From: Rhynchobatus australiae | Lineage: Eukaryota | Assembly (NCBI GenBank): GCA_034780895.1 | Contig: JAUZTB010000069.1 | Span: 1,962,227 to 2,025,556, forward strand | Direction of reading: 5' to 3' | Length of the DNA stretch: 63,330 bases | In this document: positions 2,136 through 40,286 of the stretch, piece after piece | How positions within the stretch are numbered: position 1 is the first letter of the stretch | How the letters are laid out: each line of letters begins with the position of its first letter | The notes under the pieces: generated by a model | Database searches by the model: none | Seen by the model: only the letters and a program-made list of their open reading frames with translations | Told to the model about the DNA's origin: nothing | Program-made: the position numbers and the translations under genes

Positions 2136-3176
2136 ATGAAAGGGCTCTGTCGAGTGTGTTTCAGCAAGCTGCAAGGAAACCAACGTCGCTGGATTTTCAA
2201 CACCTGTAGCAAAAGAAGATTACAAATTGTTCTTTCCTATGTATTGGGTTATACCATTAGACGTGATGGCCAAGGAGAGTTCTTGTGTAGTAAATGTGCC
2301 TTCATGTTGGAGAAGGTAATCAAATATGACATTGTTATTGCTCGTGTTAAGACTGTTTCCAGTGAGAGGCTACAGATGTTGGCAGCAGAGAAAGACCAAC
2401 TGATTCAATGTATTGTGCACTTGTACTTCAGATATAACGAACATTCTCAAAGCTCCTGTAATAAAGAAGCAGTCCTCTCCCCTGAAAGTACAGATCAGCC
2501 CTCCTTACAGTACAGCTTGCTTCTCCAAGATGAATCTATTTTATCTGAATTTTGGACGCCAAAAAAAAGCAGCAAGGAAATCTTGGGCTGTTCGAACTGC
2601 TGGCGTTCTTTCGCTGGCGGACACAGGAAGAGATGGTGCCTCTGCTCTGATTCGGTCAGAGTAGCTAATGTGTTCTGTGACTTGGTTTGCTCTGCTCCTA
2701 GACGGGCCATGCAAGGAGACCTCAGAGGAAGTGTATGTTCACGAAGCCAGTCACAGAGCTTGTGCTTTGATTTCGTACCAAGAAGTCCAGCCCCTGTGGG
2801 GAAGATGGCCAGTCGCCTTTGTACCAGCAACCTAGAAACTGAAAGCGCATCGTTATTAAATTCCACCAGGCTTGATTGGAAAATTGAAGAATCTGAAAAT
2901 CTTCAGCTGAAGTCCATATTTAACAATGAAGAGTTGACTGAAAATTCCCCCCCAGTGAGACAATCTATTGCAAATGCAATTTGGGAAATGAAGCATGTTC
3001 AGTACAAACCAGTAGCATCTTTCTCAAACAGCAAGATACCTAGGCGTGTGACATTTTCTGCATTGACACCAATGCAGAGATACAGCATTGTAGCAGACTT
3101 TCAAGGTTATGACAGTGTAACGTCTGAGCAAGAACTGTGGGTGGAGCCGGAACATGACTCTCCTTTCAAACCGGAG
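2136..3176 (+). CDS. CDK5RAP2: Alternative first coding exon encoding a SMYLE/MMG8-like N-terminus (SmyH-like C4 domain + SKIP motif)
   Basis: ATG 2136, 347 codons, MKGLCRVC..GNQRRWIF..RDGQGEFLCSKCAFML; SKIP at 3030-3041; donor GAG|GTAGTT, phase 0. Confidence 0.85.
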
Positions 3177-3254
3177 GTAGTTGAGTACAGTATTGTTAAA
3201 CCTGTCTGCAGTTGAACTAAAATTAACAAAATAGTTTGTAACTAAAGCTCAAAT

Positions 3255-4340
3255 TAGAGAGGCCGTACTGGATCTGGTACTAAGCAATGAGCCTGATCAG
3301 GTTTCAGATCTCTCGGTGGGAAAGCATTTTGGAGAGAGTGACCATAACTCCTTGACCTTTACCATAGCCTTGGAGAGGGATGGGAGCAGATGATATGGGA
3401 AAGTATTTAATTGCAGGAGGGGGAATTATGATGCTATTAGGAAGGAACTTGGGAGTGTAAATTGGGAACAGATATTCTTGGGGAAGTGCACTGCAGAAAT
3501 GTGGAGGTTTATGTAGAGAGTACTTGCATGGGGTTCTGGATAGGTTTGTCCCATTGAGGCAGGGTAAGGATGGTAGAGTGAAAGAACCGTGGTTGACAAG
3601 AGATGTAGAATATCAAGAGGAAGAAAGAAGTTTACCTAAGGTTAAGAAAGCATGGTTCAGACAGGGCTCTGGAGAGTTACAAGGTATCCAGGAGGAAGCT
3701 TAAGAATGGACTTAGGAGAGCTAGAAAGGGGAGTTAGAAGGCCTTAGTGAGTACGATTAAGGAAAACCCCAAGGCGTTCTACATGTATGTGAAGAATAGG
3801 AGGATGACTAGAGTGAGGGTAGGACTGATCAGGGATAAAAGAGGAAACGTGCCTGGAGTCGGAAGAGGTAGGGGAGGTCCTTAATGANNNNNNNNNNNNN
3901 NNNNNNNNNNNNNNNNNNNNNNNNNNNNNNNNNNNNNNNNNNNNNNNNNNNNNNNNNNNNNNNNNNNNNNNNNNNNNNNNNNNNNNNGGTGTACAAGATG
4001 ATAAGATGCATAGATCGAGTGGACAGTCAGAGACTTAATCCCAGGGTGAAAATGGCTAACGTGAGGGGGCATAATTTTAAGGTGATTGGAGGAATGTATA
4101 GAGAGGAAGTCAGAGATAAGTTTTTTTTACACAGAGTGGTGGGTACATGGAGTGCACTGCCGGCAGAGGTGGTGGAGGCAGATACATTAGGGACATTTAA
4201 GAGACTCTTAGATCGGCACATGAATAATAGAGAAATGGAGGGCTATGTGGGAGGAAAGGGTTAGATAGATTTTGGAGCAGGATAAAATGTCATTTCAACA
4301 TCATGGGCCAAAGGGTCTGTACTGTGCTGTAATGTTGTGT
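3255..4340 (+). mobile_element. CR1-type LINE fragment (endonuclease end to 3' UTR, gapped)
   Basis: LDLVL..EP.QV..LSVG..FG.SDH-like and ..RGHNFKVIGG..FFLHRVVGTWSALP peptides; LINE tail. Confidence 0.8.
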
Positions 4341-4344
4341 TCCA

Positions 4345-4570
4345 ACCTGGGTTCAATCCTGACTGGTGCTGTCTGTGTGGAGTTTGCACGCTCTCCTTGT
4401 CACCATCTTGTTTCCCCAGATGCTTTGCTTTACTTCCCAAGTCGCACAAACATGTGGGTTGGTAGGTTAATTAGCCACAGTGAATTATCCCAAGTGTGTA
4501 GCTGGTTGGTAGAAACTAGGGTGCATGGGGAGGATAGTTTACAGGGAAATTTAATGGGGGATTGGGAGTA
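4345..4570 (+). mobile_element. HE1/V-SINE-like tRNA-derived SINE
   Basis: B-box-like GGTTCAATCC followed by GTCTGTGTGGAGTTTGCACG and GGTAGGTTAATT core. Confidence 0.6.
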
Positions 4571-4639
4571 CTGTATGAACAATCATAGTCTAGATTAACT
4601 GAAATGACCTATTTCAAAAGGAAACATGAAATATAATCC

Positions 4640-4830
4640 AATCAACCCCTTTTCACCTCTTATTTCCCTGTACCTCTGTAACCTATTCTCTGTCACGCAC
4701 CCGCTAACTCCCTTTGATTCTTTTTGCCTTAAACCTACCCTAAGGGGTAATTTGCAGAAGTCAATTAACCTATAGCCTGTTCTTGAGATGTGGGAAGTAA
4801 ATGGAACACCTGGAGAAAACTTGCATTTGT
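4640..4830 (-). mobile_element. Degenerate HE1-like SINE, inverted
   Basis: CAATTAACCTA...GAACACCTGGAGAAAAC, reverse complement of the SINE core. Confidence 0.5.
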
Positions 4831-5824
4831 TTTGGATGTCTACATCCACGTTCTAATCTGGGAATATTTCCAGACCACTTCTTGTTTTACTGCATTGGTC
4901 AACAGTAAAATTGCTAAGAATTTCCAGAATTTGCTGTAACTATTGGTAGCAGGTCTTTGAACACTGGCATTTCCATTGTGTCACCCTTTTAAGGCCTGTT
5001 CATTGGCTTAACCTTCAGTTTAGTTTCAAGAACTCGGGGCTGTGTCTTTTTGTTTTTGAATGCATCATCCATNNNNNNNNNNNNNNNNNNNNNNNNNNNN
5101 NNNNNNNNNNNNNNNNNNNNNNNNNNNNNNNNNNNNNNNNNNNNNNNNNNNNNNNNNNNNNNNNNNNNNNNNTCCATCATTTTGCAGTGTCATTGTTCTC
5201 GGATGTTTAAATCCTCTTGTGCCACATGTCTCTGCTGTTTTATTTTCATATGCCTTGTCTTGGCTCCTTTTAGTTCTGTATAAAACCATTTTCTTCACCC
5301 TCCCCCACCCCCCCAAAAAAATTTCTCCCCTCTCTTCCCTTGAAACTGCATCTCCTCCTGCATTTAATTTTGACTTCCATTTTTGACATGTCCTTCTCCC
5401 TCTTCTGACTGTTTCCCTTTTAATTTTCATTTTGGGTGAATCAGATTAATGGTCTATTATGCACAGATCAATCTTAAAAGGCTCCTCAAACAGTACACAG
5501 ATAAAGAAAATACGAGCTTTATCTCTATGAGCATCTTGCACAAATTATCTCAAGCAATTACACTTGTATTAATACAAGAATTTTTAAAAGCTGTTGGGAG
5601 AAATCCAGTTATGCCTGAAAGTACCACATGCAAAAGATGCACAGATACCACAAACACAAGACATGATGGGGGAAAAACAATATCTTGAATAGCAATGCAG
5701 GAAAGCTAGTACACAAGTTAACTTGCAATTCTTGGTTAAAAATAAATTTTTGGACCTTTACTATTTGAGTTGTTAAGTTGCAATTTGACAAGACCATTGA
5801 ATTTCTTTTTGCTTTCTTTTGCAG

Positions 5825-5959
5825 AACCTCGTTGAGAAACACAGGCAGCTGGCACAGTTGGAGGTGGAAGCCAAGCAGCTAAAAGCTGACCTAGAGGTGG
5901 CTGAAACTGCAAATAGTACTTTACAAAAAAAACTAAAGGAAGTAGATGCTGCAAATGAG
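5825..5959 (+). CDS. CDK5RAP2: Coding exon NLVEKHRQ...DAANE
   Basis: Polypyrimidine tract + TTGCAG acceptor; GAG|GTACCT donor; 135 nt, phase 0/0. Confidence 0.85.
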
Positions 5960-6806: not shown

Positions 6807-6837
6807 AGATTTCACATTGAGATTTCTTAATCTTTAG

Positions 6838-20387: not shown

Positions 20388-21247
20388 GTGAGTAAGCTGC
20401 AGATGGACAAGTTCCTGCATGTTGGAATGTTTTGTGTTTGTGCCTTATTGACCTTGCTGATAATGGGTAATAGTGTGACTTGCCGTGGTGTGGAATGATT
20501 GGCTAACTCTAATTTTGTGTCGCAGGATCAAAATCATTTAATTAAAATATGAGGCCAGTTATTAAATGTGGTTGTATTGTGCTTCCAAAATAGGAATTCT
20601 TTTTAAACTATGTGTCATTTGTTTTATNNNNNNNNNNNNNNNNNNNNNNNNNNNNNNNNNNNNNNNNNNNNNNNNNNNNNNNNNNNNNNNNNNNNNNNNN
20701 NNNNNNNNNNNNNNNNNNNNNNNNNNNTTTTATAAGGACAAGAACGGGTTTCCAAATCCTCTTGAGCACTTCAGAAACCTCCAGGGTAAAGAGAACCCCT
20801 ACATAGCCATGGTTCTGCAACTTATCAGGGAGTTCTGCCAGAGTCGCAGAGAGATATTGATGGCCTTTGGCTTTCTTGCATTGAAGAAGGCCGGTTTCAG
20901 AGAAAATGGGCTGTTGGTTACTGAAGGTCATTGCCAGGGATAACAATTCAGTGGGTGAAATTAGTCATTGGTAGTAGTTGGGCACTGAGTGTCAATGCTC
21001 TCGTGATCTGTTTTATTGAAGCCAGTGGAACTGAATACTGAGTGGGGAGATCTGCTGGCTGATACTTAGTGTCAAGTCTGTTTAGTGCTGGCCAGCAAAA
21101 ATAACTTCCACCCAAATTTTTGTTGGAACTGGAGAAAAGATGCACAAGATACATGATCGTCCATTGGAACCTTGACATTGATGAATTCTGTGGTTTAATA
21201 TTTTGCAATTTGTTCCTAGTACTAATTGTAAGCACCTTTCTTTGCAG

Positions 21248-21371
21248 AAATTGGTAGAACATGGGCAAAAAGATCAACATTCGCCTCAACATGAAGCACT
21301 GAATTCCTCGCACGTTCTTGAGCTGAAACAAACGATACAAATACTACAGGAACAGCTGCATGAGAGAGATG
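21248..21371 (+). CDS. CDK5RAP2: Coding exon KLVEHG...HERD
   Basis: TTGCAG acceptor, G|GTAGGT donor; phase 0/1. Confidence 0.85.
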
Positions 21372-21384
21372 GTAGGTGTGGAAT

Positions 21385-22230
21385 CATAGAATCGTACAGC
21401 ATTTGGCCCAACTCATCCATGCTGCTTTCCCTGCCTAAGCAACTCAAATGCTCATCTAGACACTTAAATGTCGTCAGCGACCCAGCATCAACCAGTCTCG
21501 GCAGTGCATTCCAGGTGAAGAGGGTCCCTCTCATATCCCCTCCTAAATCTCTTTTCATCCTTTCATCCCCCAACCCTAAATCTATGTCCTCTAGTTTTAT
21601 CTACCTCTGATATGGGGGGAAAGTTTCCTGCGATCTATTGTCTCTATACCCCTCATAATTTTATATACCTCAATCATGTCCCCTCTTTACCTCCTCTGCT
21701 CCAAGGGGAACAGACCCAGCTTCTCCAGTCTCTCCTCATAACTGAACCACTCCATCCCAGGCAGCATCCTGGTGAATCTCCTCTGCACCCTCTCCAATGC
21801 TGTCACATCCTTCCTACAGCATGGTGACTAGATCTGTGTGAGTTACTCCAGCTGAACTCTGTCTAAGGTTTTATAAAGTTGGAGCATAACCTCCCTCCCT
21901 CTGTATTTCATGCCCTCACTATTAAAGGTCTAACCACATTATCTAGCTGTGTTGCCACCTTCAAGGATCTGTGGATTTGTACCCCAAGGTCCCTTTGCTG
22001 CTCAATGCTCCGCAAGACCCTACCTTTCATGGTGTATGTCCTAGCCTCATTAGTACTCTCAAAATGCATCACCTCCACATTGGTCTGGATTAAATCCATC
22101 TGCCATTTTTCAGCCTATTTCACCACACATTGATATCTCTCTACAGCCTCAGACTATCTTCCACATGATCAACAACTCGTGTCATCAGCTAACTGACCAC
22201 GCCTCCCTCATCCAAGTCATTCACATAAAC
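21385..22230 (-). mobile_element. CR1-type LINE 3' fragment
   Basis: EQQRDLGVQIHRSLKVA and WNALP peptides on the minus strand. Confidence 0.8.
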
Positions 22231-22295
22231 GTGACGTGGCTCCTCTGATTGCTCTCAATATTTAATGTATTTCTGTTCTTCTCATTTCATCTTAG

Positions 22296-22438
22296 CTGAA
22301 TTAACTCAAGATTCTGCAGAAGATGAAGTTCATGTTAAAGTGCCCCGAAGCAAGAAGAGTTCAACCAACCTGAAGAAAGAGCTTGCCCAGAAATCTCAGG
22401 AATTGGATGAAGCCTTGAAGAGGGAAAATGATACAAAA
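22296..22438 (+). CDS. CDK5RAP2: Coding exon (A)ELTQD...RENDTK
   Basis: TTAG acceptor, AAA|GTATGT donor; phase 1/0. Confidence 0.85.
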
Positions 22439-22561
22439 GTATGTCTGTTATGGCTGAAATAAGTAGAGGCATAATCAGTGACTTTCTCCCCCATTAAATT
22501 CTGTAATTTGTATTCGGGTNNNNNNNNNNNNNNNNNNNNNNTTTTGATCTCAATTTTGCAG

Positions 22562-22678
22562 ATGGAAGTGATTCGACTCCAAGCTCTCCTTGACCAGTTG
22601 GAAAAGGATGCTCAGATACAGGCTGCAAATGTTGAACGATTATCCAAAGCCTTGCAAGTCAAGGATGAAATCATTAAA
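22562..22678 (+). CDS. CDK5RAP2: Coding exon MEVIRLQ...KDEIIK
   Basis: TTGCAG acceptor, AAA|GTAAAA donor; 117 nt. Confidence 0.85.
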
Positions 22679-22844
22679 GTAAAATTTTCAGAGCCTCCCT
22701 TTCTGAAGTTTTGTCTATCAGGGTACTGAGTAAAGTGGGTCTGTATTAGATTGCAGAAAATCTGAGGTGATTTAAGGGCTTTACTTTTGTTCTAGGGACA
22801 TGCTTCCTTTGGTTGACCTACCTAAAACTACTAGAACTACAGCA

Positions 22845-23018
22845 AAAAAATAATCTGCTGGAGGATCTCAGCAGATCAAGGAGCATCCAGTCTTGATGCA
22901 GGGTCTTGACTCGAAATGTCGACCAAAATTTTACCTCTTCAGAAGCTGCCTGACCGGCTGAATTTCAGCAGTTTAGTTTTGCTCCAGATTCCAGCACAGC
23001 AGTCTCTTGTGTCTCCAT
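22845..23018. mobile_element. Penelope-derived hairpin element
   Basis: AATCTGCTGGAG ... TTTTGCTCCAGATTCCAGCA; central GTCTTGATGCAGGGTCTTGACTCGAAATGTCGAC. Confidence 0.6.
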
Positions 23019-23687
23019 ATTAGAACTACAGTCTTAGGATTAGGAGGTAACCATTTGGGGTATAGATTGTTTCACTCATTGCATCATCAGTTGTTGGTGT
23101 GTTTTAAGGCTGAGGGTTGAAATACTCAGTTGTCAAGTATATAAACCATGGGACAATATACAATTCAATATCAAGAGAATTTAGGATATTAGGAAGGTGG
23201 AGTTGAGTTGGATCCGTCTGAGACTGAATGGGATTTGATTGCCTTGATTACAGTGAATTATGAAAGGTTTTTGAGTTTTGGCATTTCATTCTTCCTTGTC
23301 CCCTACATCAGGAATGGTTGGTTCAAAGTCAGTGAGTGCTAGATTGGTTGAATTTGTAACAACTGGTACAAGGGTGCACTTACTGTGCTCCTTCAGCACT
23401 GCTGCCTTGCAGTTTAAATCTTGCTGTGGTGCTAGAGTTCTCATTAAATCTGGTTCCCAACCATAGCGTTGCCCAAAAAAGAATGTTTATCTGGTTACTT
23501 TCATGTTGTTATTTGTGGGAGCTCGCTGTACATGTTTCCCACACCTCAAAAGTGACTGCATTTCAGAAGTATTTAACTAAGTATTTTGCAAATGTCCTGA
23601 AGTTATGTGGAGGCATTTTTGAAATGCTGGTTTGCTCTTTTTGTTTTGGAAACATGTGACTGGGACACATTTTCTTTGTTATCACAG

Positions 23688-23828
23688 AACATTCAGCCTG
23701 GATCTGTCTTCTCTGAGATAAAGGGAGCAGAGCAGGTGACACGAGAAGTAATTGTGCTGAAGGATGGTATCCAGAGACCTGGCCATCTTCCGAGAGAGAG
23801 AACTATCATTGGAGGAGACAGCCAGCAG
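23688..23828 (+). CDS. CDK5RAP2: Coding exon NIQPG...RERTIIGGDSQQ
   Basis: CACAG acceptor, CAG|GTTGAT donor; 141 nt. Confidence 0.75.
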
Positions 23829-23909
23829 GTTGATGCTCCTCTATGTCTTGTTTGTATTTGATAATGCAGTTGGATTTATTTGGAAGCTTATCATCATTTC
23901 TTTTTGCAG

Positions 23910-24019
23910 CCTGTCCAAACTCTTGACGATCAGGTGTCAGAGGAAAGCTTGTACCATGCACTGAAGACAGAGCAGCAACTCTATTCCAGACTCATCAAAG
24001 CAGTGAAAGAATCAGACAG
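23910..24019 (+). CDS. CDK5RAP2: Coding exon PVQTL...LKTEQQLYSRLIKAVKESD
   Basis: TTGCAG acceptor, AG|GTAGAA donor; phase 0/2; resembles CDK5RAP2 EQSIYTHLVKSLQESD. Confidence 0.85.
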
Positions 24020-24761
24020 GTAGAAAATTAGTACTTATTGGCGTATCTTGAGCTTGCTTCTCATTCTGATTCAAGCAAGTTCAACAAACTTTCATTGTGT
24101 TGTTTCATTCTTTGCTGCAAAGAATTTAATCAAGAAATTCATAATTTTAGTGTTAAATGTTACTGTAATGGATTGTACACAACTATTCGAATGGGACTCA
24201 AATAGGTCATGTGCCATCTTAACCGATCCCAGTCACAGGAATGATAAATCTTGGCCTCTTCTTGCGACCTGGGGTCTTAATTTCATCCCAGACAGATGAA
24301 TTTAGAGCTTTATTATCTTACTGGAAGGATTCTTGTAAAGTTAGTTTGAAACTTCTCAAATGACCAGTAGGTAATATCGTGTCAAATTATTGACAATGTC
24401 ATTCTATTTGTCAGTCTCCCTCAAACGATGCAGGAAGGCCGGATTGGAAATTGAAAGACGAGGAAGGAAGTTTTCACTCAAGTGGGACCTTCTTTTGGCC
24501 TTTGGCTGTGTTTTAGTGTACCTAGATATACTGTAATCATTATATGAGGCTCCCCTGCATCTCAAAGCATCAGATGATTGGTGTTCTTATTCTACCATGA
24601 TGTGTTACTCTCCATCAGACTAGTATTTTAATCTATTTGTTTACTTTGTGCACATAAAACAAAATAAGGAAATCCACTCATATGGATTCATAAAATTTAG
24701 TTGTGAGATGCTTTGTTAGCTCGGTTTCCCATGAGGTTGCTTAACCATATTTCTTGTTCAG

Positions 24762-24898
24762 TCGCAATCGCATCCAAGCCTTGCAGATGGAGCTGACAGG
24801 CATTCAACTGCTGCGACAACAACTTGAGGAAAGCATTCAAACCAATCGAGACCTGCAGAAGAACTTGGAACAACAAATCCAGGATGTCAAAAGAAAAG
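24762..24898 (+). CDS. CDK5RAP2: Coding exon RNRIQALQMEL...DVKRK
   Basis: TTCAG acceptor, G|GTGGGA donor; phase 2/1. Confidence 0.87.
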
Positions 24899-25049
24899 GT
24901 GGGAAACCAATGGAAATATTCCGGTGCATTGTGGACCTAGGCTGCAAATCAGTTCTTAGTCTTAGAACCTGATAGGCAGTGGCACAGACGGGCTGTTCAT
25001 CAGCTTTTCAGCTTCCTTCCCTGCTCACAGCACCAAAGTTGGTTACTTC

Positions 25050-26470
25050 TACCCATCTGCTCAGGGTAACATCAATTAATTTACCACAGCTCATCAGTGA
25101 TAGTAACGATTTGGATGAGAATATAGGTGAGAATGATTAGTGTTTGTGGATGGCACCAAAATTGGTGCAATGGTGGACAGTGAAGAGCATTGTCTAAGGT
25201 TGCAACAGGATCTAGGTCAACCGGAAAGTGTGTCAAGGAATTTAACTTGGATGAGTGAAAAGTGTTGTATTTTAGGCAGTTAAACCAGGGCAGGACAGAC
25301 ACTGAATGACAGAACCTTGGGGAGTGTTGTAGAACAGAGAGACCTAGGGGTACGGGTACATAGTTCTCTGAAAGTGGCGACACAAGTAGACAGTGTTGGA
25401 TCTGGTTATTTTTGAATCCACAGGTTCTTTCAGGAATCCAGGAATGAGTTGAAAACAACTTGGTGCTTCAGAGTTTTATTGGAAAAGTTTAAAACAACAA
25501 AACAGTCACAGAGCACAATGGCACTGGCTTTGATGAGCCGAGACAAAGGGAACAAAAGATGAGCTCAGGCTGGGGGGAGGAAAGCAAGAGAAAGATTAAC
25601 AAAAAACGACACCTTTTATACCTGAGATAAGAGGTACTCCTTAGCTAACAATAGTCCAATCGGAAAACCTGTTAGATACTTGTGGCCAAACCAACCAATG
25701 GAAAAAAACACATTCTCCTGCTGGACAAACCAATAAACTAGTAAGCGGCCATTCCTTGTGCAGCCACTTGAGGTGTATTAAACACTATACATGTTTAAAA
25801 AAACTAATTAAAACAGTGGAATCCAACCACAAGATGATGAAGAAGCTGTCTGCCATGTTTGCTTTCAGTGGACAGTGCACTGCGTACAAGGGTTGGGTTG
25901 CCACATCACAGCTGTTCCAGGGTGTTGGTGAGACCACAGCTGGAATGTTGTGTGCAGTTCTGGATACCATACTATAGAAAAAAATGCAATTAAGCCAGAG
26001 ATGACGCAGAAAAGATTCACAGGGATGTTGCTGGGGCTGGGGGGCTTGAGTTATGAGAGACAGGATAGGCTGGGACTTTTTTCCCTGGAGTGAAGGAGGC
26101 TGAGGGGTGGCCTTTACAGAGGGTTAGGAAATCCTGAGAAGCATTGATAAGGTGAATGGTCACTGTCTCTATCCCAGTGTAGGGGAGTCTAAAACCAGAG
26201 GGCATTGATTTAAAGTGAGAGGGGAAAGATTTAAGGGAGACCTGAGGGGCAGGTTTTTCAACACAGGTGTTTGGGATATGGGATGAGCTACCAGAGGAAG
26301 TTGTAGGGATTGATACATTTACAATGTTTACAAGACATTTGGACATGTACACAGATAGCAAAAGATTTAGAGGGATGTGGGCCAAATGCAGGCAAATGGG
26401 ACTGGCTCAGGAAGGCATGGACAAGTTGGGCTGAAGGGTCTGTTACTGTGCTGTACAACTCGAACTATAA
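25050..26470 (+). mobile_element. CR1-type LINE fragment interrupted by a solo LTR
   Basis: ..EQRDLGV.VH.SLKVATQVD (break) ..VQFW.PYYRK.. and 3' tail GGGCTGAAGGGTCTG. Confidence 0.8.
25394..25828 (-). mobile_element. Solo LTR nested in the LINE
   Basis: Termini TGTTGGAT...ATCCAAC(C); flanks ACAG/ACAA; minus-strand TATAAAA (~25614-25620) and AATAAA (~25476-25481); CCAAT boxes. Confidence 0.6.
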
Positions 26471-29104
26471 AGTTAGGGGTTTTATTCTGTATGGTTTTAC
26501 TATTAAACCAAGCAGTGTCTTTACTTTGAATACAATTGGGAGAGGCCTCACCTTAAAAAGACTACTTTTTTAGATTTTTGTTATGTGCAGCTAATGAAGA
26601 TTATAAAGTGGGTAGATGGAATTAAGGTTCAAGCAGCCATGTTTGAATTGAATGAGGATATGTTGTATCGCAAAGTTACCAATTCAAGACCCATTCCCTT
26701 ATTTATGTTGATTTTTATTTAAATGAAATGAGTTGTTAATAAAGCTTTACCATTTTAATTCAGGATTGTTAGTAAATGAATGGAAGAATAATTAAATTGG
26801 CACCATCCTGTTCAGGTGCTAATTAGTAGGCTGGGTATAATTTATTTAGTTTTCTGTTTTTAAAGGCTAAGAAATGGGTTGTTGTCATCCCTAATGGGAT
26901 GGTGTTTAAATTTTTTCTGCTGATACAATTTGCAATATAAATAGTGTTTAGCAAAAGCCAATGAAGTTTAATTACAGATTCTAATTTTTAGAGACATAAT
27001 TAATATTCTGTTTTGATATATGAATATTCATTGTAAAAGTATTTTTGTACAGCCTTTTTGGAGTAAATTGCCTGTTGAGATACCTTTTGCTTTCAGTACA
27101 ATGTTTAATTCATGCACAAGGGGGTTTTGAAATCATTGAGCTGACAGCAGTTGAATAAAAGAGCACAGCCTTTCATAATGTTGCATTTTGTGTTCCTAAA
27201 TGCACTCTGAAACTAGGCAACCTATTTTTCAATATCAAGTGTTGATTGANNNNNNNNNNNNNNNNNNNNNNNNNNNNNNNNNNNNNNNNNNNNNNNNNNN
27301 NNNNNNNNNNNNNNNNNNNNNNNNNNNNNNNNNNNNNNNNNNNNNNNNNGAACTCTTTGTGCACGAAAATTTGGGAAATCCAAAATCTGCAGGAAATCCA
27401 AGTTTTACCTTTCTGGAAATGCTATGTAATCTCAAAAATCTATTTTCAGTGCATTAGTTAGAGCCTGGAGTCTGGTATAGCCCTTTAGTAACTCTGATGT
27501 ACAAGTTTTGCCCCTTACCATATTTGCTGCTTAAAAGCAACTTTTTGCTACTCTTGAGTCAACTTTTGTGCCGTCTTGTATCCCTGGATTCACTTCCTCA
27601 GTCCTTCATGTTGATTTCTGCTATTTTGGTGTTTCCATGGTGAATCGTCAGTTAGAGAAGTCAGGGAATGAAAGGACTGATCAGTGAGTCATATTTAGGG
27701 TGATTGGCACGATATTGGTTTGGTGAAATAGTTAAGTCTCCTGAAACAGATTACGATGACACAAAGTGTTATGTGGTCTAGGAGCAATCTCTGCTGCAGG
27801 TGCTTTGACCAAGCCCTCCCTATGGTTGGTGGTACTTCTGCTTTCAATAACAGAAGTGCTGATCTTAAACAGGAATTGAGTATATAGTTTAACTAATAAT
27901 AGATTTTGATTCATTTAAGAGAAAAGTGTTTGAAGAGGTTCTTTTGATAGAGGATTTCAAAAGAAATTATCCTGTCTGACCTGCATTTTGGCAGAGAGGA
28001 TGTGATGTAGTTTAGAAAGATCAGCAAAACTATGGGAAATGGAATTCAATATAGAGAAGTTAAAATTTGTCAATTGGATTGTTGTATATCTTGNNNNNNN
28101 NNNNNNNNNNNNNNNNNNNNNNNNNNNNNNNNNNNNNNNNNNNNNNNNNNNNNNNNNNNNNNNNNNNNNNNNNNNNNNNNNNNNNNNNNNNNNNNNNNNN
28201 NNNNNNNNNNNNNNNNNNNNNNNNNNNNNNNNNNNNNNNNNNNNNNNNNNNNNNNNNNNNNNNNNNNNNNNNNNNNNNNNNNNNNNNNNNNNNNNNNNNN
28301 NNNNNNNNNNNNNNNNNNNNNNNNNNNNNNNNNNNNNNNNNNNNNNNNNNNNNNNNNNNNNNNNNNNNNNNNNNNNNNNNNNNNNNNNNNNNNNNNNNNN
28401 NNNNNNNNNNNNNNNNNNNNNNNNNNNNNNNNNNNNNNNNNNNNNNNNNNNNNNNNNNNNNNNNNNNNNNNNNNNNNNNNNNNNNNNNNNNNNNNNNNNN
28501 NNNNNNNNNNNNNNNNNNNNNNNNNNNNNNNNNNNNNNNNNNNNNNNNNNNNNNNNNNNNNNNNNNNNNNNAAGAGAGATCAGGCTCATTTGTGATGTCC
28601 TAATGGTTGAATATTACTTGGACAAAACATCAAACAGCTGTAGCCATGGGGCAAGAAAACAAAATTAACCATTCTCATCTTGAGGGTGCTTATTCAGACT
28701 CACCACCTGGAGTCTTGTATTTGATTTGAGGCAGTGTAATTCAAGGCAGAATAATTAACCTTGGTGGAATCACTGCTGTAATTCACCAAAAGGTAACAGG
28801 GATTATAGTGTTAAAAATGAAGCCAGCTTGGGTAAGATTTGAATTTTAAAAATGTTATAAGTATTCCATTCAGGGTGCTTGAAGTTGTATTCTATTTGGC
28901 ACATGTGGATTTTACTTTTCCTTTCTGGATCAGGAAATCCAGCTGCTAGTATTAGATCCAGGCAACTTGGGTATGAACTCTGCCCTTTAGGTACAGTAGA
29001 GGCTGGCCCAAGTGACAATGGAATAGTTAACTCTGGAGAGCACAAAGGCATGGATGAGAGTTTCAGCAACATGTGAGCTTGAGACCAATGTAGTNNNNNN
29101 NNNN

Positions 29105-31800
29105 AGGCCATTTGGCCCAGTTCCTCGTCCACTATTCAATAAAACCAGGGCTGATCTTTTCCACCAGTGTAACTTTTTCACAAACCCCATATTTCTTGAT
29201 TCGCTTTAGTATCTAAAATTCTGTCAATCTCTTCTGATATCTACTGAGCCACAGCAGTCCTCGAGTAGAGAATCGCTCAAGTTGCTTCATGTATGCTTCA
29301 TCAGGACAGTATGTGGTCTATTTCCCTTCATCATTGCTCCAGATTCCAGCATCTGCAGAATCTCTTGTGTCTTCTTAAAAATACTTTCTGCCTTTTTATT
29401 TCTGCCGAAGTGGAGGATCTCATATGTTTCCACATTATGTTCCATCTGCCATGTCCTTGCACAGCCACTTGGCCTGTCTTGTCCCCCTGAATCCTCACTA
29501 AACCCTGCCTGTTGTATCGGCAACAAGACTAAATCTTTTTGTGTATGATTTCCCCATCATCCAAATCACTGATGTGGCTCTGCTCCCAGTTCTGATCTCT
29601 GCTGCAACCACAAGTTGTAGCCTTCCAGCCTGAAAATTACCCCTTTTATTCCTTCTGTATTCTATCTGTTAACTAGTCCTTGGTCCAGGCAAGCATTTTC
29701 TTCCCACCATGCTCTAATTTTTTTTAATCTTGTATGGCAGCTTTATCGAAGGACTTCTGAAAGTGCAAGTATGCTACATCCACTGGTTTGCCCTAATCTA
29801 TTCTTTGTTTTAATAAATCTGTGTTGACTTTACCCAGTCATATTATTTTCCATGAATTCATCCTCCACACTATCAAACATACAACAATACAGCACAGGAC
29901 AGGCCTTCTGGTCACAATGTACTGACCATGATGCCAATCCAGACTAATCCCATCTGCCTGCATATGGTCTATATCCCTCCATCCCCTGCCTATTCATGTA
30001 CCTGTCTAAATATCTCTTAAATATTGTTGTCATATCTGCTTCCACCACCTCTCCTGGCAGTGTTTCCGGCACACACCATTCTGTGTATTTTCAAACAAAA
30101 ACATGCCTCTTAAATCTCTTTTAACCTTTCTCCCTCTCACATTAAAGCTATGCCCTCGAGTATTTGACATTTCTACCCTGGGAAAAGAGAGACTGACTAT
30201 CTACCCTATCTATGCATCTCATAATTATATATACTTCTATCATATCTCCCTTCAGCCTCTGACATTCCAGAGAAAACAATCCAAGACTGTTCAACCTCCT
30301 TATAATTAATGCTCTCCAATCCAGCCAACATCCTGGTGAATTCTGCACCCTCTCCAAAACCTCCACATCCTTCCTGTAATGCAGTGACCAGAACTGCACA
30401 CAGGATTCCTAGTACTGCCTAACCAAAGCTTTATACTGCCACAGAGTGCCTTCCCAACTTTTATATTCAACCCTCCCCCGACTGATGAAGGCAAGCCTGC
30501 TGTACACTGCCTGCACCACCCGATCTATTTGTGTTGCCACTTTTGGGGAGTTATAACTTGCACCCCAATATCCTTCTGCACATCAGTGCTCCTAAAGGTC
30601 CTGCTATTTATTGTGTACTTACCTCTTGCATTTGACCTCCCAATGTGCGACACCTCACTCGACCAGATTAAACTTCATCTGCCGTTTCTCTGCTCATGTT
30701 TACAACTGATCTATATCCTGCGGAATCCTTTGACAACTTTCCCCACTATCCACAGTACTGCCATTTTTCATGACATCTGCAAACTTACTCATCAGTCCAC
30801 TTAGATTTTGCATCCAAATCATTTGTATATAGGTCCCAGCAGTGATCGCACTGGAACACCACTGGTCCCAGATTTCCACGCAGAATAACATCGCTTCACC
30901 ACTACCTTCTGTTTTCTATTCAATTTCAGATTCAATTTTGAATCCAGTCTACCAAGTCTCCATGGATCTTCTGGATCAGCCTACCATGGGGGATCTTGTC
31001 GAAAGTTTTACTAATGTCCATGTATACAACATTCACTGCCCTACCATCGTCAATCATCTTTGTCATTTCAAAAAACTCAAATTTGTAAGACATGATTTCC
31101 CCCCTCCCCACCCCACAAAGCATGCTGACTGTCCCTAATAAGTCTGCTTTTTCCAGATTCAAGTAGATTTGATCACTAAGAATCTTCTCCAATAATTTTT
31201 CTACCACTGATGTAAGGCTCACTGGCCTATAATTTTCTGATTTGTTTCTATTGCCCTTCTTAAATAGCTCATTTCAGCTTATTACTGCTTGTTTGTTTTG
31301 CTCAGTCACTTTGTAGTTCCCCATGATCATTGTATGACCCATGTTGCATTCCCCTCCAGTTTCCTGATGTGTACTGTGTTGTGCATTACCGCTACTGTTT
31401 GGGGGTCTATGTACCACACTGACCAATGTCTTCCACTCTTTGCTGTTGCTTAGCTTCACTACTACTTGGAAATATACAAAAGGCAGATAGTGGAAATCTG
31501 AAATAAAAACAGAAAATGCTGAAAATGTTCAATAGGCCTGGAGGGATCTCTGGAAAAAGATTGGCTTCCCACAGATGTAATGAGATCTGCTGAGTATTAC
31601 CACCACTTCTTGATTTCCCTTGATTATCCAAGCAGGGATCTGTCCCCACTGTTGTCCTTATCCCATTCTTTAATATCAAGGCTACCTTGCTTCCTTTTCC
31701 ATTTTTCCTATCTCTTTAAGAAATTAAGTATCCTGGGCTGTTTAATTCCCAATCTTGTTTATTTTGTATCCATGTCTTTGTAATGGTAGATAGATCCTAT
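29105..31800 (-). mobile_element. Cluster of nested CR1-type LINE fragments
   Basis: SLTSVVEKLLEKIL, VYMDISKTFDKIPH, SKFADV, QFWSLHYRKDV, VVHRPPNSS on the minus strand. Confidence 0.75.
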
Positions 31801-32916
31801 TCGTGTATGTTTACTTCTGGCATTAATTCATCTACCATTACAAATGCTATGTGTATTGAGATGGTGTTCAGTTTTGCCCTTTTCACCATTTTCCCCTGGC
31901 CCAGTTCTAATTCAATGTATCCTTAATGTTAGAATGAACTTCCCTCTCCTGATCGGCACTGGTACCCATCTTGCTACCCTGTATAATCATCTGCCCTTTT
32001 GCTTTTAATTTGGTAGATTTCCCTCACTGATCTGGATGTTATCTGTGTAGAATTGGAAACTGGTGTCGTGTATCTGGCTAGAAAGTAGATGAGAAAGAAG
32101 CGATGGTTGGTCATGGTGGTATTGTAGATTCCAAGGATGCAAACCAGTGGCAACCTTGCAGGAGTGCAAACAGTGACGATTCTGTAGTTGTCTGGCTGTG
32201 AGTGCAGGGGGGTGGCTAGCAGCTGGATAGTGGATGGAAAAGGGCATGCACAGCATGTCAGTGAATGCAGTCTGGTTGAAGAGGGATATATTTGGGAGGT
32301 CAATTAAGATATCTTTCAGTAACCCTTTGATCAAGGCTGGTTTGGTCATGTGGCTGCTCTGTAAATCTGCTTCAGAATGATTCAAACAAGGAGCTCCGTG
32401 TATGATGGACATAGTTGGGAGGCAACAACACATTCAAGGAAATTGGAGAGAGAGGGTGAATTGGAAATGAAATATTTGTTCCAAGATGATTCCTGTTTTC
32501 TCCTTGTATACACTCTTCAAAATCCATTTCATGTATGAACGTGAAATTCCTGATATTTGTCTTGATGCTTTGTTCTGCTTCCTCAGTGTAGTTTTTGTTA
32601 CTGCTTTTTCCCTACAGTTCATTCTCTTGTTTCTTTCCTGCTTCCTTATGGTTTAAGAAACTGTCCTTGCCTTGTAACTTGATCCTTTTAAATTTGAGAT
32701 CAGTTTAATGGGTCTTCTGCATTGCCTCTAGTACCTATCTGTATTTGCTCTGAGATATTGTCTATAGAATGGAACACACTAGTTGGGTGCAGTTTGAAGA
32801 GAACATTATACCACTTGGAAAATGGAATCTGTTTTCTTTATTGCTTTTTGCAGAATTTCATCTGGCAGTACCTGAGCTGAAAATATTGACTTGATCTTTA
32901 AAACTTTGTTCCCCAG

Positions 32917-33069
32917 ACATTGTTTCCAAAGGAGATGTGGTTGACTTTAGTGAGATGGAGTGTCTGCGGCACCAGTTGGAAGATGCCCAACGCTGGAATG
33001 TTTCGCTACAGTCGCGACTTGGACAGATGCAGGCTAGAGCTGGTGGTGTGGGTGCAGCCAATGATTCAG
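32917..33069 (+). CDS. CDK5RAP2: Coding exon (D)IVSKG...QLEDAQRWNVSLQSRLG...AANDS
   Basis: CCCCAG acceptor, G|GTATAC donor; phase 1/1. Confidence 0.82.
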
Positions 33070-33239
33070 GTATACCTTTGCCTTTCCCCATGTCATGTGT
33101 ATCATCAATGTGCCCAAGATATACTTTGGGAAACTTGTCAACATGCAGTACATGTTTCCTGTTTGGTGTGCTGTTCAAATGTTGAATTGTAGCTTTATAT
33201 TTATTATCATTGATATACAAGTTTTAGAAAAATTTTATA

Positions 33240-33520
33240 AGAACTAAAGCACAAACAGGCGCTTTTGGTCCACATAGTCCACAGCATCTAGCACACCTTG
33301 CATTAATCCCATTTTCTCCCCATGGTGCCATCAATTCCCCTCAAATTGTACCACTTGCACATTAGGGGCAATTCATTGGCCAATTAACCTACCAACACAC
33401 AGGTCTTTGATGTGGGGTGAAACTGGAGCACCCTGGGCACGGAGGATGTGCCAACTCCAATGGACAGCACCAGAGGTCAGGATTGACCCCAGGTTGCTGC
33501 ACTCATGAGGCAGCAGCTGT
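33240..33520 (-). mobile_element. HE1-like SINE
   Basis: CCAATTAACCTACC...AACTGGAGCACCC...GGATTGACCCCAGG (reverse B-box). Confidence 0.55.
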
Positions 33521-33649
33521 GTCACCTCCCAATTAGATGGAGTTCACCAGACTGGGTAACATTATGCGCAATATCAGGACAATGAATATAAAAGGTTGTC
33601 CAATCACAGAACTGAGAGTTGTCTTCACTAGTTCTATAGTTTCTAGGTG

Positions 33650-34400
33650 GGAGTGTCACTGTGAGGGAGATGCAGAGGCTTCAGGGCAATAATGGCAGGT
33701 TAAGTAAATGGACAAGAACATGGCAGAGAGGCTATAATATAGGGAAAAACATGATGTCCTTCACTTTGGCACCAAGGGTAAAAAGGCAAGATGTTCTTTA
33801 AATGGAGAGCAATTGAAAGGTGTTGGTTGGTGTTCGGAGGAACCCAGGAAACACAAAGCTAACTTGCATGTTAAGCAAGCAAACTGTATGTCAGCCTTTG
33901 CTGCAATAATAGTTGAGCACAAGGATGGAGACTGCTTGCTCAAGTTATCCAGGGCTCTTGTGCAACTGTCTGGAATATTGTTTTATTGGTTTGGTCTGCC
34001 CATCCTGGGAAGGATATATTTGGAAAGAAGGCAGTGGAGGTTCATTGTCTTGATTCATGGGATGAAAGATTTGTCATATGAGAAAAGGTTAAGCAGAGTG
34101 GACTTCCAGTCTCAAGTTTAGAACAATGACATGCATCTCTTTGAAACGTGCAAAATTCTTCCAGGATTTCATGGAACAGATGAGGAGGTGATGTTTCCCT
34201 GGTGAGGGAGTTGAACTTCACATTGGCCATTCAGATCATAAGACACTTTTTCACTCAGAGAAATTAATATTTGAAATTCTCTACCCAGGGGTGATGTAGA
34301 TTCTCAGTCATTTAGATGTAATTGAGGCACAGGTTGATAAATTTTTGGATATATTAAGGGAAATGGGGTTGGTNNNNNNNNNNGGAAAATAGCATCAAGA
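33650..34400 (+). mobile_element. Degenerate CR1-type LINE 3' fragment
   Basis: GMKDLSYEKRLSR-like peptide; TTTTCACTCAGAG and TTGAAATTCTCTACCC. Confidence 0.55.
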
Positions 34401-34480
34401 TAACCATGATTTTATAGGATGACACATCAGGTACAAGGATACAATAGTCACTTGTAATTTCTTGCATTCTGATATTCTAG

Positions 34481-34596
34481 GTAACACTTTTACAAGCTGT
34501 GGAGACCAGACTTCGTATCTCAGCATCTGCCTGGGCCAGTTTGATGACTTGGAGCAGGAAATAGTGAATCTTTCTCTGCCAGAGCTCCGACAAAAG
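34481..34596 (+). CDS. CDK5RAP2: Coding exon (G)NTF...DQTSYLSICL...ELRQK
   Basis: TCTAG acceptor, AAG|GTGAAC donor; phase 1/0; CDK5RAP2-like DQTxYLSICL. Confidence 0.88.
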
Positions 34597-34722
34597 GTGA
34601 ACATTTTCAATCTGATGTGCCCACCTCGCACAGATCTTGTTTCTTTTAATTAAAATATATAATACTGCAGACAACAAAAATAGAACACCTATTTCCTGTT
34701 CGTTCCTCCTATAAAATTCCAG

Positions 34723-34860
34723 GTTATTGAACTTCTGAAATCCCTGAAAGCATTGCAAGCCAACAGTCAGGAGTCGCAAGACAGAATTAGCATGTCAGAG
34801 CACTCTGTTCTCTGCTCCAACAGCGAAGATAAACAAGAGGAATCATCGGTGGCTGCACAG
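34723..34860 (+). CDS. CDK5RAP2: Coding exon VIELLKS...VAAQ
   Basis: TCCAG acceptor, CAG|GTGAAG donor (alternative in-frame donor after 34866). Confidence 0.78.
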
Positions 34861-35332
34861 GTGAAGGTTAAGAAACTGCTCTGAAATTGCTTTAACGCCC
34901 TTCACATTATTCTGCAGCTAAAACTACTTTTGCTTCCAGTGTTGTGCACAGCTGCTGAAGTGGCATAAAATATTTTGGTTCAGAATGCAGCTCAAGTTGG
35001 ATATAGAAAGTATATTCAAGCAGTACGTGTGGTATGGATAAGTGTGTGAATTCTAAGAGATCATGAATTTAGTTAAATTGTAGTTTGGCTGTTTAATTAT
35101 CTTCAGAGTATTTTGTGCATTTCCTCTAAACTTAGTGCATGAATTCCCATTATATAACAAAAATATAACTAGTTTATATTGTTTATTGTCAATTTAAAAT
35201 TATTCACATGTTTAAGCGACTTGTCAGGATGTNNNNNNNNNNNNNNNNNNNNNNNNNNNNNNNNNNNNNNNNNNNNNNNNNNNNNNNNNNNNNNNNNNNN
35301 NNNNNNNNNNNNNNNNNNNNNNNNNNNNNNNN

Positions 35333-36135
35333 CCGGAGAAGTGTGAGGTGGTACACTTTGGAAGGACAAACTCCAAGGCAGAGTACAAGGTTAATGGCAG
35401 GATTCTGGGGAGTGTGGAGGAGGAGAGGGATCTGGGGGTCCACATTCACAGATCCCTGAAAGTTGCCTCACAGGTGGATAGGGTAGTTAAGAAAGTTTAT
35501 GGGATGTTAGCATTCATAAGTCATGGGATCAAGTTTAAGAGCCACAAAGTAATGATGCAGCTCTACAAAACTCTGGTTAGATCACACTTAGTACGCTACT
35601 GTGTTCAGTTCTGGTCGCCTCATTATAGGAAGGATGTGGAAGCATTGGAAAGGGTGCAGAAGAAATTTACCGGGATGCTGCCGGGTTTAGAGAGTCTGCA
35701 TTATGAGGAGAGACTAAGGGAGCTAGGGCTTTACTCTTTGGAGAGAGGAGGATGAGAGGAAATATGATAGAGGTGGACAAAATATTAAGAGGAATAGATA
35801 GAGTGGAGAACCAGCGCCTCTTTCCCAGGGCACCAAGGCTCAATACAAGAGGGCATAGCTTTTAAGTAATGGGTGGGAAGTTCAAGGGAGATATCAGAGG
35901 GTTTTTTTTTACCCAGAAAGTGGTTGGGGCATGGAATGCTCTGCCTGGGGCAGTGGTGGAGGCAGGTACATTGGTCAAATTCAAGAGATTACTAGATAAG
36001 CATATGGGGGAATTTAAAATAGAGCGGTATGTGGGAGGAAGGGGCTAGATATTCTTAGGCGAGGTTTAAAGGTTGGCACAACATTGTGGGCCGAAGGGCC
36101 TGTATTGTGCTGCACTGTTCTATGATTCTATGATA
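35333..36135 (+). mobile_element. Relatively young CR1-type LINE 3' part
   Basis: HFGRTN..EEERDLGVHIH..YCVQFWSPHYRKDV; tail GGGCCGAAGGGCCTG...TTCTATGATTCTATG. Confidence 0.85.
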
Positions 36136-36174
36136 TTACATTAAAGTTGGATATATTACAGAGAACAGTGTCAG

Positions 36175-36320
36175 AGAACTGTGGCAACAAAAGTCTTCTG
36201 GAGGAACTCAGCGGGTCAAGCAGCATCCGTGGGGATGGAAGAAATTGTTTCAGGTCAAAACCCTGCATGATAATTATTTGTTGCTCTAGATTCCAGCATC
36301 TACAATCTCTTATGCCTCCA
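36175..36320. mobile_element. Penelope-derived hairpin element, partial
   Basis: CTGGAGGAACTCAGCGGGTCAAGCAGCATC ... GATTCCAGCATCTACA. Confidence 0.55.
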
Positions 36321-37908
36321 TAAGACTACTTTGATATAGTTCCAAATGTGGAATATTAAATCGGAGTGAGTGTCCTGGTACACATGACTTGTAACCAGTT
36401 GATGCTGGGGAGTCTTTCAGGAATCCCCAAGTAAACTACTCCCTGCACTGGACATAGCCTCATCTTGCAAAGGCAGATGTGTTCTTGTATTTTTTTAGGG
36501 CTGATCTTTGTCTATCATTGACTGTGCTCATTGGAGCTGTGGAGATCTGCTAGGATCCATTGATTCTAGATTCACTTACCTCTTCCAGGGGATAGTTGCT
36601 TTTAAATGCAGGTGATACAGTGCTTGGCAGCTTCAGTAATAGGGCTGGGAATACCTGAATACACTGCACCATCATGTTGAGCTTTTGGTCAATGGTGATG
36701 CCCTTACAAGCCACCTACTCCCTAGAACAAGGCCGGTGGAAGACTTGACTCTGCTGCAGAATTAGGAGGCAAGCTATCAAAATTAGAAATAAGTTTTTTT
36801 GGGAGAGAAATCCAGAAGGACTTTCTCAAACAAAGCATGGTGGAGATTTGGAGCATTATCTCTTAAAATGCTATAGAACACTAGACACTTGAAAATATTA
36901 AGACTGAAACTGAAGGATTTTAATTGAATAAAAGTAACGAGTGATATGCACCAAATGCAGGTAAATGCAATTGAGACTCCGACCAGCCATGAGCTGATGA
37001 AATGATGGATCAGGACTGAGAGGTTGATTCGGTCTACTCCACTCTGTATATATGAGCTGGGATCACATACAGGGCAGGCTCCCTCCCCTGAAGGATATTC
37101 ATCAACCAGGTGATGCTTCTTTAGATAATTAAAGAACTGTCATAGTCTTTCTGCTGCCAGTCCACAAATTAATAGATTTATTGAATTTAGTTTTACAACT
37201 ATTCATCATGGGATTAGAACACAGAGCCTTCAAGGCTGTTAGACCAGTATCATAACCAACAGTGCCCTATGTTATCCTGCACACCACATTAATTTATAGT
37301 CTATTAATAATGTATGACGTGATTACATTCTAGTGAATGGCACAACAATTTATGGAACACATTATGATGGATGGTTTGGAACTCTATAACAGAAATTATG
37401 TGAAGCATCACTGTTCATAGCATGCAAATAAGTTAAATTCAACAGCTGTTGGGTAAAATGGCACTTTCCTGCACATAAGCATGGATGTAAAATTTTTACA
37501 TTACTAAGGATTTTCTCAGGAAATTCTTATTAATCAAGGGCTACAATCAGCTCAAAAGTGCAAAGTTCAGAACACAAGATATTTTTGGAAGTATAGGGCC
37601 ACTTTAATTTATCTGTCCAGAGATATCCCATCATCCATCCATTGTGACATTTAATTGTTTCCAAAACAATTTAAGGTTTCTCTCTCATTTGTCTTTTGTT
37701 TGAGTTTAACTGTAAGAATTTTTCTTATGTGGTTAAATTTAAAACTTGAAAAATCTGTTCGTTACTTTTTGTTCCAGGTCTTCTGGAATCCATTATGCAT
37801 TCAAGACATGCTTTCATTTATACTTCAGTTATATATGCTGTTGTTTACATCCACTTTTTTTTCCTTCAAACTTCATTCTTTTGTCTCATCCCGCTCCATG
37901 TCTCATAG

Positions 37909-38001
37909 CTGCTTCATCAACGACAAGAAGAATCAATGAAAGTAAACGGAGGCCTTCAGGAGCTGTCACAAAGCATTAGCCAGCTTGATGATCACAACTT
38001 G
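37909..38001 (+). CDS. CDK5RAP2: Coding exon LLHQRQ...DDHNL
   Basis: Long pyrimidine tract + CATAG acceptor, TTG|GTAGGA donor; 93 nt, open frame. Confidence 0.65.
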
Positions 38002-38104
38002 GTAGGACTGTTTCTTAAGGATTTCTGGTTTTACTCATTTTGCTTTGGTCTTGGCTACTCCAGTGTGGATGGATACAGATTTGGAATTGGATTTGGGTTT
38101 TCAT

Positions 38105-40207: not shown

Positions 40208-40286
40208 AGGCATCTGACACTGATCAGAAAACACCTTATCCATAATGGATCATACCTTGGCCTGTAATGTGGTATCAGAATTCACA
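40208..40286. repeat. Direct repeat copy 1 (79 nt core)
   Basis: 78/79 identical to 41910-41988. Confidence 0.9.

Follow-up and report, generated by a model that had tools for sequence, protein, structure and literature searches.

Whether CDK5RAP2, a microcephaly-linked centrosome gene, shares a second kind of start with its sister gene myomegalin (PDE4DIP) is the question raised by a 63,330-nucleotide stretch of DNA from the ray Rhynchobatus australiae (contig JAUZTB010000069.1, positions 1,962,227 to 2,025,556, forward strand; hereafter the window, with positions counted from its first letter). Myomegalin has a form lacking CM1 that is made from an alternative promoter and whose N-terminus binds EB1 and targets the cis-Golgi; the paper describing it calls this N-terminus unique to myomegalin and relates CDK5RAP2 to the CM1 form only (Roubin et al., PMC3575658). 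Our analysis indicates that CDK5RAP2 probably has two mutually exclusive starts, either CM1 or a predicted ZAD zinc domain with an SxIP motif, as myomegalin does. The features that carry this reading are listed below.

2136..3176, + strand: candidate exon of 347 codons with a phase-0 donor, an alternative coding start of CDK5RAP2 of the SMYLE/EB-MMG type, matched by a sawfish protein
2136..2375, + strand: predicted ZAD zinc domain, residues 1-80, with C5, C8, C51 and C54, followed without a break by a long helix that ends at residue 104
3030..3041, + strand: SKIP, the first SxIP-type EB1 motif (putative), residues 299-302
3177..5824, + strand: probable GT...AG intron with repeats resembling long interspersed nuclear elements (LINEs)
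5825..5959, + strand: first shared exon, 135 nucleotides, 45 residues, at which the CM1 chain and the alternative start meet

The ATG at 2136 has an A at position -3 and is followed by 347 sense codons, free of stops, up to the donor GAG/GTAGTT after 3176, which confirms the open exon with a phase-0 donor described in the original prediction. The stop-free frame around the exon (366 residues) is the longest N-free frame of the window; in 50 shuffles of the window the longest stop-free frame was 232 residues (mean 154). Pfam SMYLE_N matched residues 122-333 with 27.4 bits (cut-off 25), and SKIP aligns with SRLP at residue 309 of human myomegalin isoform 28. When 3176 is joined to 5825 the reading is ...SPFKPE/NLVEKHRQ... 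in phase 0, and the receiving exon has a pyrimidine tract and a CAG acceptor in the same phase. The junction is likely, given the splice signals, the conservation and the automated gene models described below.

The CM1 exons expected upstream were found outside the window, 13-41 kb ahead of the exon start and on the same strand, on the contig that carries the window (C69; C76, C78, C81 and C135 are other contigs of the same genome). This chain (C69:1,923,152-1,951,411) comprises exons of 68, 111, 77, 124, 167, 157 and 54 nucleotides in consistent phases; its first two exons were not located. The Cnn_1N (CM1) exon at C69:1,933,305 (47.9 bits), 31 kb upstream of the ATG, reads QITxLKKENFNLKLRIYFLEERMQQ as in human CDK5RAP2 and matches human CDK5RAP2 chains in the PDB. 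The gene extends about 17 kb beyond the window end, through CM2: the part of the sawfish protein that resembles the Drosophila centrosomin chain 5i7c_A (residues 2709-2765) is encoded just beyond the end of the window. The rest of the gene in the window is as follows; SRLP, like SKIP at 3030, lies at the position named in the original prediction.

6154-6273, 6391-6483, 6838-7056, 9177-9347, 10341-10457, 15077-15214, 17149-17328, 19707-19901 and 20196-20387, + strand: next nine shared coiled-coil exons, AG/GT, phase 0
21200..62713 (approximate ends), + strand: further CDK5RAP2 exons, located by tblastn with the sawfish model
42715..42726, + strand: SRLP, the second motif of the SxIP type; its aligned counterpart in human CDK5RAP2 is SRLP at about residue 936

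Sequence similarity and gene neighbourhood identify the host gene as CDK5RAP2 and not PDE4DIP, in line with the earlier assignment of the downstream exons. The closest named protein is the model of Pristis pectinata (sawfish) CDK5RAP2 isoform X3, with 92% identity over the exon and 98% over the body columns. Sawfish proteins were used as stand-ins for the window gene and for PDE4DIP of the same genome in the human comparisons: human CDK5RAP2 scored 496 bits with the sawfish CDK5RAP2 model and 235 bits with sawfish PDE4DIP, and human PDE4DIP scored 1622 bits with sawfish PDE4DIP. A Pfam CM1 search of the 2.2 Gb genome gave two loci only, on C69 and C76, and PDE4DIP is the separate locus on C76. 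PDCL lies about 25 kb past the 3' end of CDK5RAP2 on the opposite strand (C69:2,067,692-2,069,369), and C69 also carries PSMD5, NOTCH1, a BRINP, a PBX and a BET gene; PDC, 0.8 Mb from PDE4DIP on C76, mirrors PDCL near CDK5RAP2. We take these neighbours of C69 and C76 to be genes of human 9q33-34 and chromosome 1, respectively. PDCL, PSMD5 and NOTCH1 fit a 9q33-34-type neighbourhood as expected of CDK5RAP2, and a motif scan of the CDK5RAP2 flanks showed no MEGF9-type laminin-EGF repeats.

The arrangement is modelled well beyond this ray. Comparison of the catshark exon with long proteins (1,552-4,941 residues) gave 168 matches, of which the best 15 are CDK5RAP2-type models from 13 species of sharks, rays and elephant shark; the other 105 of the best 120 are myomegalin (104 so named, 1 unnamed). 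The junction to the same next exon is present in all 15 cartilaginous-fish models and in a sturgeon model, all of them automated, and the cartilaginous models start at the Met of the window or two residues ahead of it. A search of 1.84 billion representative sequences yielded 91 matches to the exon. Named CDK5RAP2-type matches include sturgeon, paddlefish, gar, pipefish, goby, a goodeid, icefish and Paramormyrops. The four cysteines are kept in 25 of 26 CDK5RAP2-type rows and the S/T-x-I/L-P motif in 23 of them. Among the window exon and the 15 cartilaginous models no variation is seen in 42 of the first 80 columns, compared with 6 of 70 in the linker. The original prediction spoke of the isoform in this lineage, to which it is not restricted: it is modelled across sharks, rays and chimaera, and the exon occurs in sturgeon, gar and teleosts. 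The named rows among the 26 (10 are unnamed, the library merges sequences above 50% identity, and the best 120 of the 168 matches were used) include no lobe-finned vertebrate.

The human CDK5RAP2 chain (1893 residues) gave no match to the 347-residue exon, as had been anticipated, nor to the 45-residue exon. Human residues 276-293 match the 54-nucleotide exon in register, at 6 of 18 positions, and adjoin the counterpart of exon 6154-6273 directly, so that the 45-residue exon is missing in human too. The ZAD exon thus appears to have been lost from the lineage leading to human CDK5RAP2. The lack of a human counterpart for the exon at 5825-5959 suggests that one deletion removed it together with the alternative first exon.

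As a sequence the isoform is not new; only the interpretation is. Automated RefSeq isoforms of Scyliorhinus torazame CDK5RAP2 (X1, XP_072344464.1, and X4, XP_072344467.1) carry both the exon and the junction. They are orthologous isoform models, predictions without a described function or evolutionary reading, and about half of such models are myomegalin-like by name. No description of a SMYLE-type start in CDK5RAP2, of a third paralog or of a ZAD in myomegalin was found in the literature searched, which left most subscription papers, among them the primary SMYLE and structural ZAD papers, outside its reach.

How old is the two-start arrangement? PDE4DIP on C76 has CM1 exons, a 54-nucleotide exon, a 390-codon ZAD exon with a phase-0 donor and then the NLIEE exon, a homologue of the first shared exon, which is the same order as in CDK5RAP2; in its middle the window exon has only about 30% identity with this genome's PDE4DIP exon. 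At C81:746,700-760,736 there is a third copy, in a gene of the si:ch73-95l15.5 family with a ZAD-SxIP first exon followed by coiled-coil exons, and no CM1 exon was found within 107 kb upstream of it. Relatives of this family occur in shark, bichir, teleosts, coelacanth, lungfish, amphibians, gecko and turtle, with no named mammal or bird among the rows looked up. C69, C76, C78 and C81 each carry a PBX gene, and CDK5RAP2, PDE4DIP and the third copy are on three of these; BET genes are on C69, C78, C81 and C135, a pattern expected of a four-fold paralogon. With three copies of the exon on three contigs of a four-fold paralogon, the start switch most likely predates the duplication.

Separate trees of the first exon and of the downstream body agree with this. 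The first-exon trees (one with 99 rows, after removal of 8 matches shorter than 150 residues and one spurious match, the others with 38 rows) placed the CDK5RAP2-type rows on one side of a branch with 100/97 support and PDE4DIP on one with 100/100, the third group not being cleanly resolved. The body tree (31 rows) had the same three groups, with supports of 94/92 for CDK5RAP2-type, 100/100 for PDE4DIP and 98/98 for the third. The trees, which are unrooted and leave out tetrapod CDK5RAP2, are congruent, and in neither do the window sequences group with PDE4DIP. The approximately unbiased (AU) test rejected a grouping of cartilaginous CDK5RAP2-type with cartilaginous PDE4DIP sequences for the exon (p 3.6e-5) and for the body (p 1.3e-49). 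The same domain opens the lamprey and hagfish proteins, which take unstable positions: the long lamprey protein, on a long branch, was open in the body tree, sister to CDK5RAP2 in the body AU analysis and with the third paralog in a first-exon tree. Since the separate trees are congruent and the AU test rejects transfer or duplication inside cartilaginous fishes, an origin of the exon before the duplication is well supported. The earlier proposal that the choice between a CM1 and a SmyH first exon predates the CDK5RAP2/PDE4DIP duplication is upheld, with the PDE4DIP layout and the third paralog in its favour, and the switch probably goes back to before the early vertebrate genome duplications.

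A number of observations weigh against a spliced ZAD start in CDK5RAP2 or limit it. The joint of 3176 to 5825 was not among the 15 joints listed out of 32, which came from two of four runs, both of relatives, so that the predicted junction rests on the splice signals and the agreement of all 15 models. One spliced contig of a relative (depth 27.7) enters 5825 from 982 letters that are not the window exon and goes on to skip the introns 5960-6153, 6274-6390 and 6484-6837, all GT..AG. By its length the 982-letter upstream part agrees with the CM1 chain, and the ZAD form may accordingly be the minor one or confined to certain tissues. The window exon was present in none of the runs on record as RNA; part of it is covered at low depth and unspliced in one run whose RNA nature is a guess; this cover may stem from DNA or pre-mRNA and is evidence neither way. 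There is no CpG island at the exon or in 120 kb upstream, hence no promoter mark of this kind. The exon is annotated as a stand-alone gene in gar, paddlefish and Paramormyrops models, and the isoforms in RefSeq are automated predictions, with a read support that is not visible. The sawfish CDK5RAP2 model scores higher with human PDE4DIP (722 bits, first exon included) than with human CDK5RAP2. In the trees there is no tetrapod CDK5RAP2, and both AU groupings were chosen after the first tree had been seen. Finally, CDK5RAP2-type exons have an eroded version of the Cys-rich block in the middle of SMYLE_N (27 bits in the window, 217-338 bits in PDE4DIP), and SMYLE_N gave no match in the sawfish, catshark, chimaera, sturgeon or gar CDK5RAP2-type proteins scanned. 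With the middle of the exon eroded, its partners may differ from those of myomegalin.

Some of these points suggest other explanations. The exon could mainly serve a short stand-alone transcript (ZAD plus SxIP, about 360 residues) nested in CDK5RAP2, which ignores the donor and terminates within the intron. The gar, paddlefish and Paramormyrops annotations are indeed genes of 316-352 residues with a single open reading frame, the frame stays open for 12 codons beyond the donor at 3176, and the missing joint and the unspliced pieces over part of the exon would fit. We nevertheless consider this quite unlikely, as the donor position is conserved (...PLKA/E, ...PLKV/E, ...PFKP/E) and the read-through tails vary in length and sequence, all 15 cartilaginous models splice onward, and in the PDE4DIP counterpart the donor agrees in both position and phase. 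An internal cassette, giving one protein with CM1 and ZAD together, is modelled in pipefish CDK5RAP2, where the exon is joined behind CM1, and in some fish PDE4DIP models with CM1 ahead of ZAD. Against it, none of the four AG sites that lie between the ATG and the stop upstream of it is in frame with the phase-0 CM1 chain, the open frame offers no in-frame acceptor ahead of the ATG, every cartilaginous model begins at or just before the window Met, and the spliced contig reaches 5825 without the window exon; a cassette is accordingly very improbable.

Equally improbable is that the host is a myomegalin-like paralog and not a true ortholog of tetrapod CDK5RAP2, in which case a SMYLE exon would be expected. 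The models of 6 of the 13 species (among the matches listed) are named myomegalin or myomegalin-like only, the 722 bits with human PDE4DIP exceed the 496 bits with human CDK5RAP2, the trees are without tetrapod CDK5RAP2, and MEGF9 and FBXW2 were not located (FBXW2 was not searched for). The names probably follow from that same score of 722 bits. On the other side, human CDK5RAP2 and human PDE4DIP each favour the assigned partner (496 against 235 bits; 1622 bits with sawfish PDE4DIP), the CM1 exon is that of human CDK5RAP2, the internal SRLP and the 54-nucleotide exon are in register with human residues 936 and 276-293, PSMD5, NOTCH1 and PDCL are on C69 with PDC near PDE4DIP on C76, and only two CM1 loci are in the genome. 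A copy of the exon from PDE4DIP into CDK5RAP2 after the duplication, by gene conversion or exon shuffling, is hardly credible and is largely refuted by the trees. Since human CDK5RAP2 is without the exon, a gain in fishes is formally conceivable; it would need a gain before the split of sharks and bony fishes plus a later loss anyway, the exon is not nested in PDE4DIP (AU p as above), and the third paralog and cyclostomes carry it as well. We thus favour a pair of alternative starts in CDK5RAP2 inherited from before the duplication.

The N-terminal part of the exon, in the region we take to be the one termed SmyH, is predicted to fold as a ZAD zinc domain over residues 1-80. An AlphaFold2 model from a 30-row alignment had predicted local distance difference test values of 83-95 over residues 1-100, with most of the remainder at low confidence. 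The best 11 rows of a Foldseek search were all ZAD structures (probability 0.94-1.00; E 0.01-0.35, none below 0.001), and a VIA-align search over 48,161 chains gave ZADs as its best six (Z 8.3 to 5.4, root-mean-square deviation 2.1-2.7 over 60-81 residues), with coiled-coil rows below them at Z of about 5. The best rows of the ESM Atlas were only ZAD and unnamed mollusc clusters (0.86-0.91), which serve as leads only. Pfam zf-AD (cut-off 28) scored 22.4 bits for the window exon, 29.4 for the gar ortholog and 31.3 for the PDE4DIP exon of the same genome; human and mouse PDE4DIP scored 27.8 and 30.9 bits. The predicted fold shares the CxxC...CxxC treble clef and the long helix with the ZAD (zf-AD, PF07776) of insect C2H2 proteins and ZNF276/ZFP276. 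It differs in sitting on a cytoskeletal coiled-coil scaffold at 11-22% identity, and no C2H2 finger array, only coiled-coil families, was found downstream of the ZAD in the proteins scanned. A 2025 abstract describes ZFP276 as the only human ZAD-like protein (PMC12649048). The near-threshold zf-AD score of human myomegalin (residues 4-73) and the ZAD prediction for its ray homolog stand against that statement.

The ray exon resembles that of EB-MMG/MMG8/SMYLE in being a single large first exon in place of the CM1 chain, at the same gene position and phase, with SMYLE_N, four conserved cysteines and an SxIP near the exon end; it differs in belonging to CDK5RAP2, not PDE4DIP, and in its diverged middle. 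According to a 2026 review, MMG8/SMYLE associates with AKAP9, CDK5RAP2 and EB1 and has 1116 residues with a C-terminus of its own (PMC13678657). The modelled ZAD-start forms of CDK5RAP2 are long (2,604-2,896 residues in the search of 1,552-4,941 residues) and keep CM2 and the second SxIP, and the 7 matches in a search of 609-2,000 residues included no short CDK5RAP2-type form. The proposed SMYLE/MMG8 type stands for the start, with its Pfam match and single first exon. Human CDK5RAP2/CEP215 (PDB 6x0v_G, 9g40_u) has the CM1 exon register, the internal SRLP, CM2 and the 9q33-34-type neighbours in common with the ray gene and lacks its 347- and 45-residue exons. The si:ch73-95l15.5 family shares the ZAD plus SxIP first exon and homologous coiled-coil exons; this third paralog is shorter (about 620-780 residues) and, unlike the ray gene, without a CM2 region and a CM1 exon within the upstream interval searched in this genome. 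A mouse CDK5RAP2 splice form without exon 17 retains binding to gamma-TuRC (the ring complex of gamma-tubulin), the reverse of a CM1-less ray form (PMC9508486); that paper and PMC4556188 deal with other mouse splice forms.

The exon lies within the intron that separates the end of the CM1 chain from the first of the shared exons, and in the scheme that we propose it is likely an alternative first exon with a promoter of its own. If it behaves like EB-MMG/MMG8, the ZAD and its helix would dimerise and direct the protein to an AKAP9 platform at the cis-Golgi, SKIP and SRLP would bind EB1/EB3, and the shared coiled coil and CM2 would still dock at the centrosome or Golgi. Such a CM1-less form would anchor and guide microtubule ends instead of activating gamma-TuRC, a Golgi or plus-end scaffold unable to activate the complex alone; alternatively, it may temper the CM1 form by pairing with it. 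A single ancestral vertebrate centrosomin gene would have had both starts, which PDE4DIP and fish CDK5RAP2 kept after genome duplication; the third copy would have kept the ZAD start only, and the lineage to human CDK5RAP2 would have dropped the ZAD exon and the 45-residue exon that follows.

A wider reading, to which we give somewhat less than even chances, is that SmyH is a true ZAD dimerisation module and the human EB1 isoform of myomegalin a second human ZAD protein, outside transcription factors; that the CM1/ZAD-SxIP switch belonged to the ancestral centrosomin and three fish duplicates keep the ZAD; and that the mammal lineage deleted it from CDK5RAP2 and recruits SMYLE in trans. If so, human CDK5RAP2 would get from SMYLE in trans what fish CDK5RAP2 does in cis, and the human SMYLE-CDK5RAP2 partnership would be explained as the division of what was once a single gene with two starts. 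For the N-terminus of myomegalin, which targets AKAP9 and the Golgi, the predicted ZAD would provide a testable fold, and non-mammalian vertebrates would gain an unstudied third family member. If fish make a CM1-less CDK5RAP2, a long isoform would survive in fish microcephaly models whose disruption is limited to the CM1 exons, an expectation carried over to teleosts.

Several further observations were made in and around the gene. Upstream of the ATG, window positions 1725-2135 are well conserved in contigs of relatives (3 differences in 337 letters in one piece), a conservation that resembles that of a promoter or 5' untranslated region, and the AG sites at 2115 and 2118 are possible acceptors for a non-coding upstream exon. 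In most shark and chimaera-lineage shark models SRLP is closely preceded by a third motif of the SxLP type, SKLP near residue 1555; its counterpart (window about 41,530-41,600) is absent from the ray models examined and from the window. About 63 kb upstream of the first located CM1-chain exon is a receptor gene that was considered as GPR21; it gave low-score GPR34/PAR2/P2Y matches instead and adds nothing to the synteny. It is a single-exon gene of the rhodopsin family on the minus strand. Some 2 kb beyond the final coding exon of CDK5RAP2 there is an MLLE-domain exon, also on the minus strand, and a CpG island follows after about another 4 kb. The introns of the window hold many decayed LINE reverse-transcriptase fragments on both strands (for example 3300-4450, 10,700-12,050 and 15,700-16,600), presumably CR1/L2-like judging by their peptide motifs.

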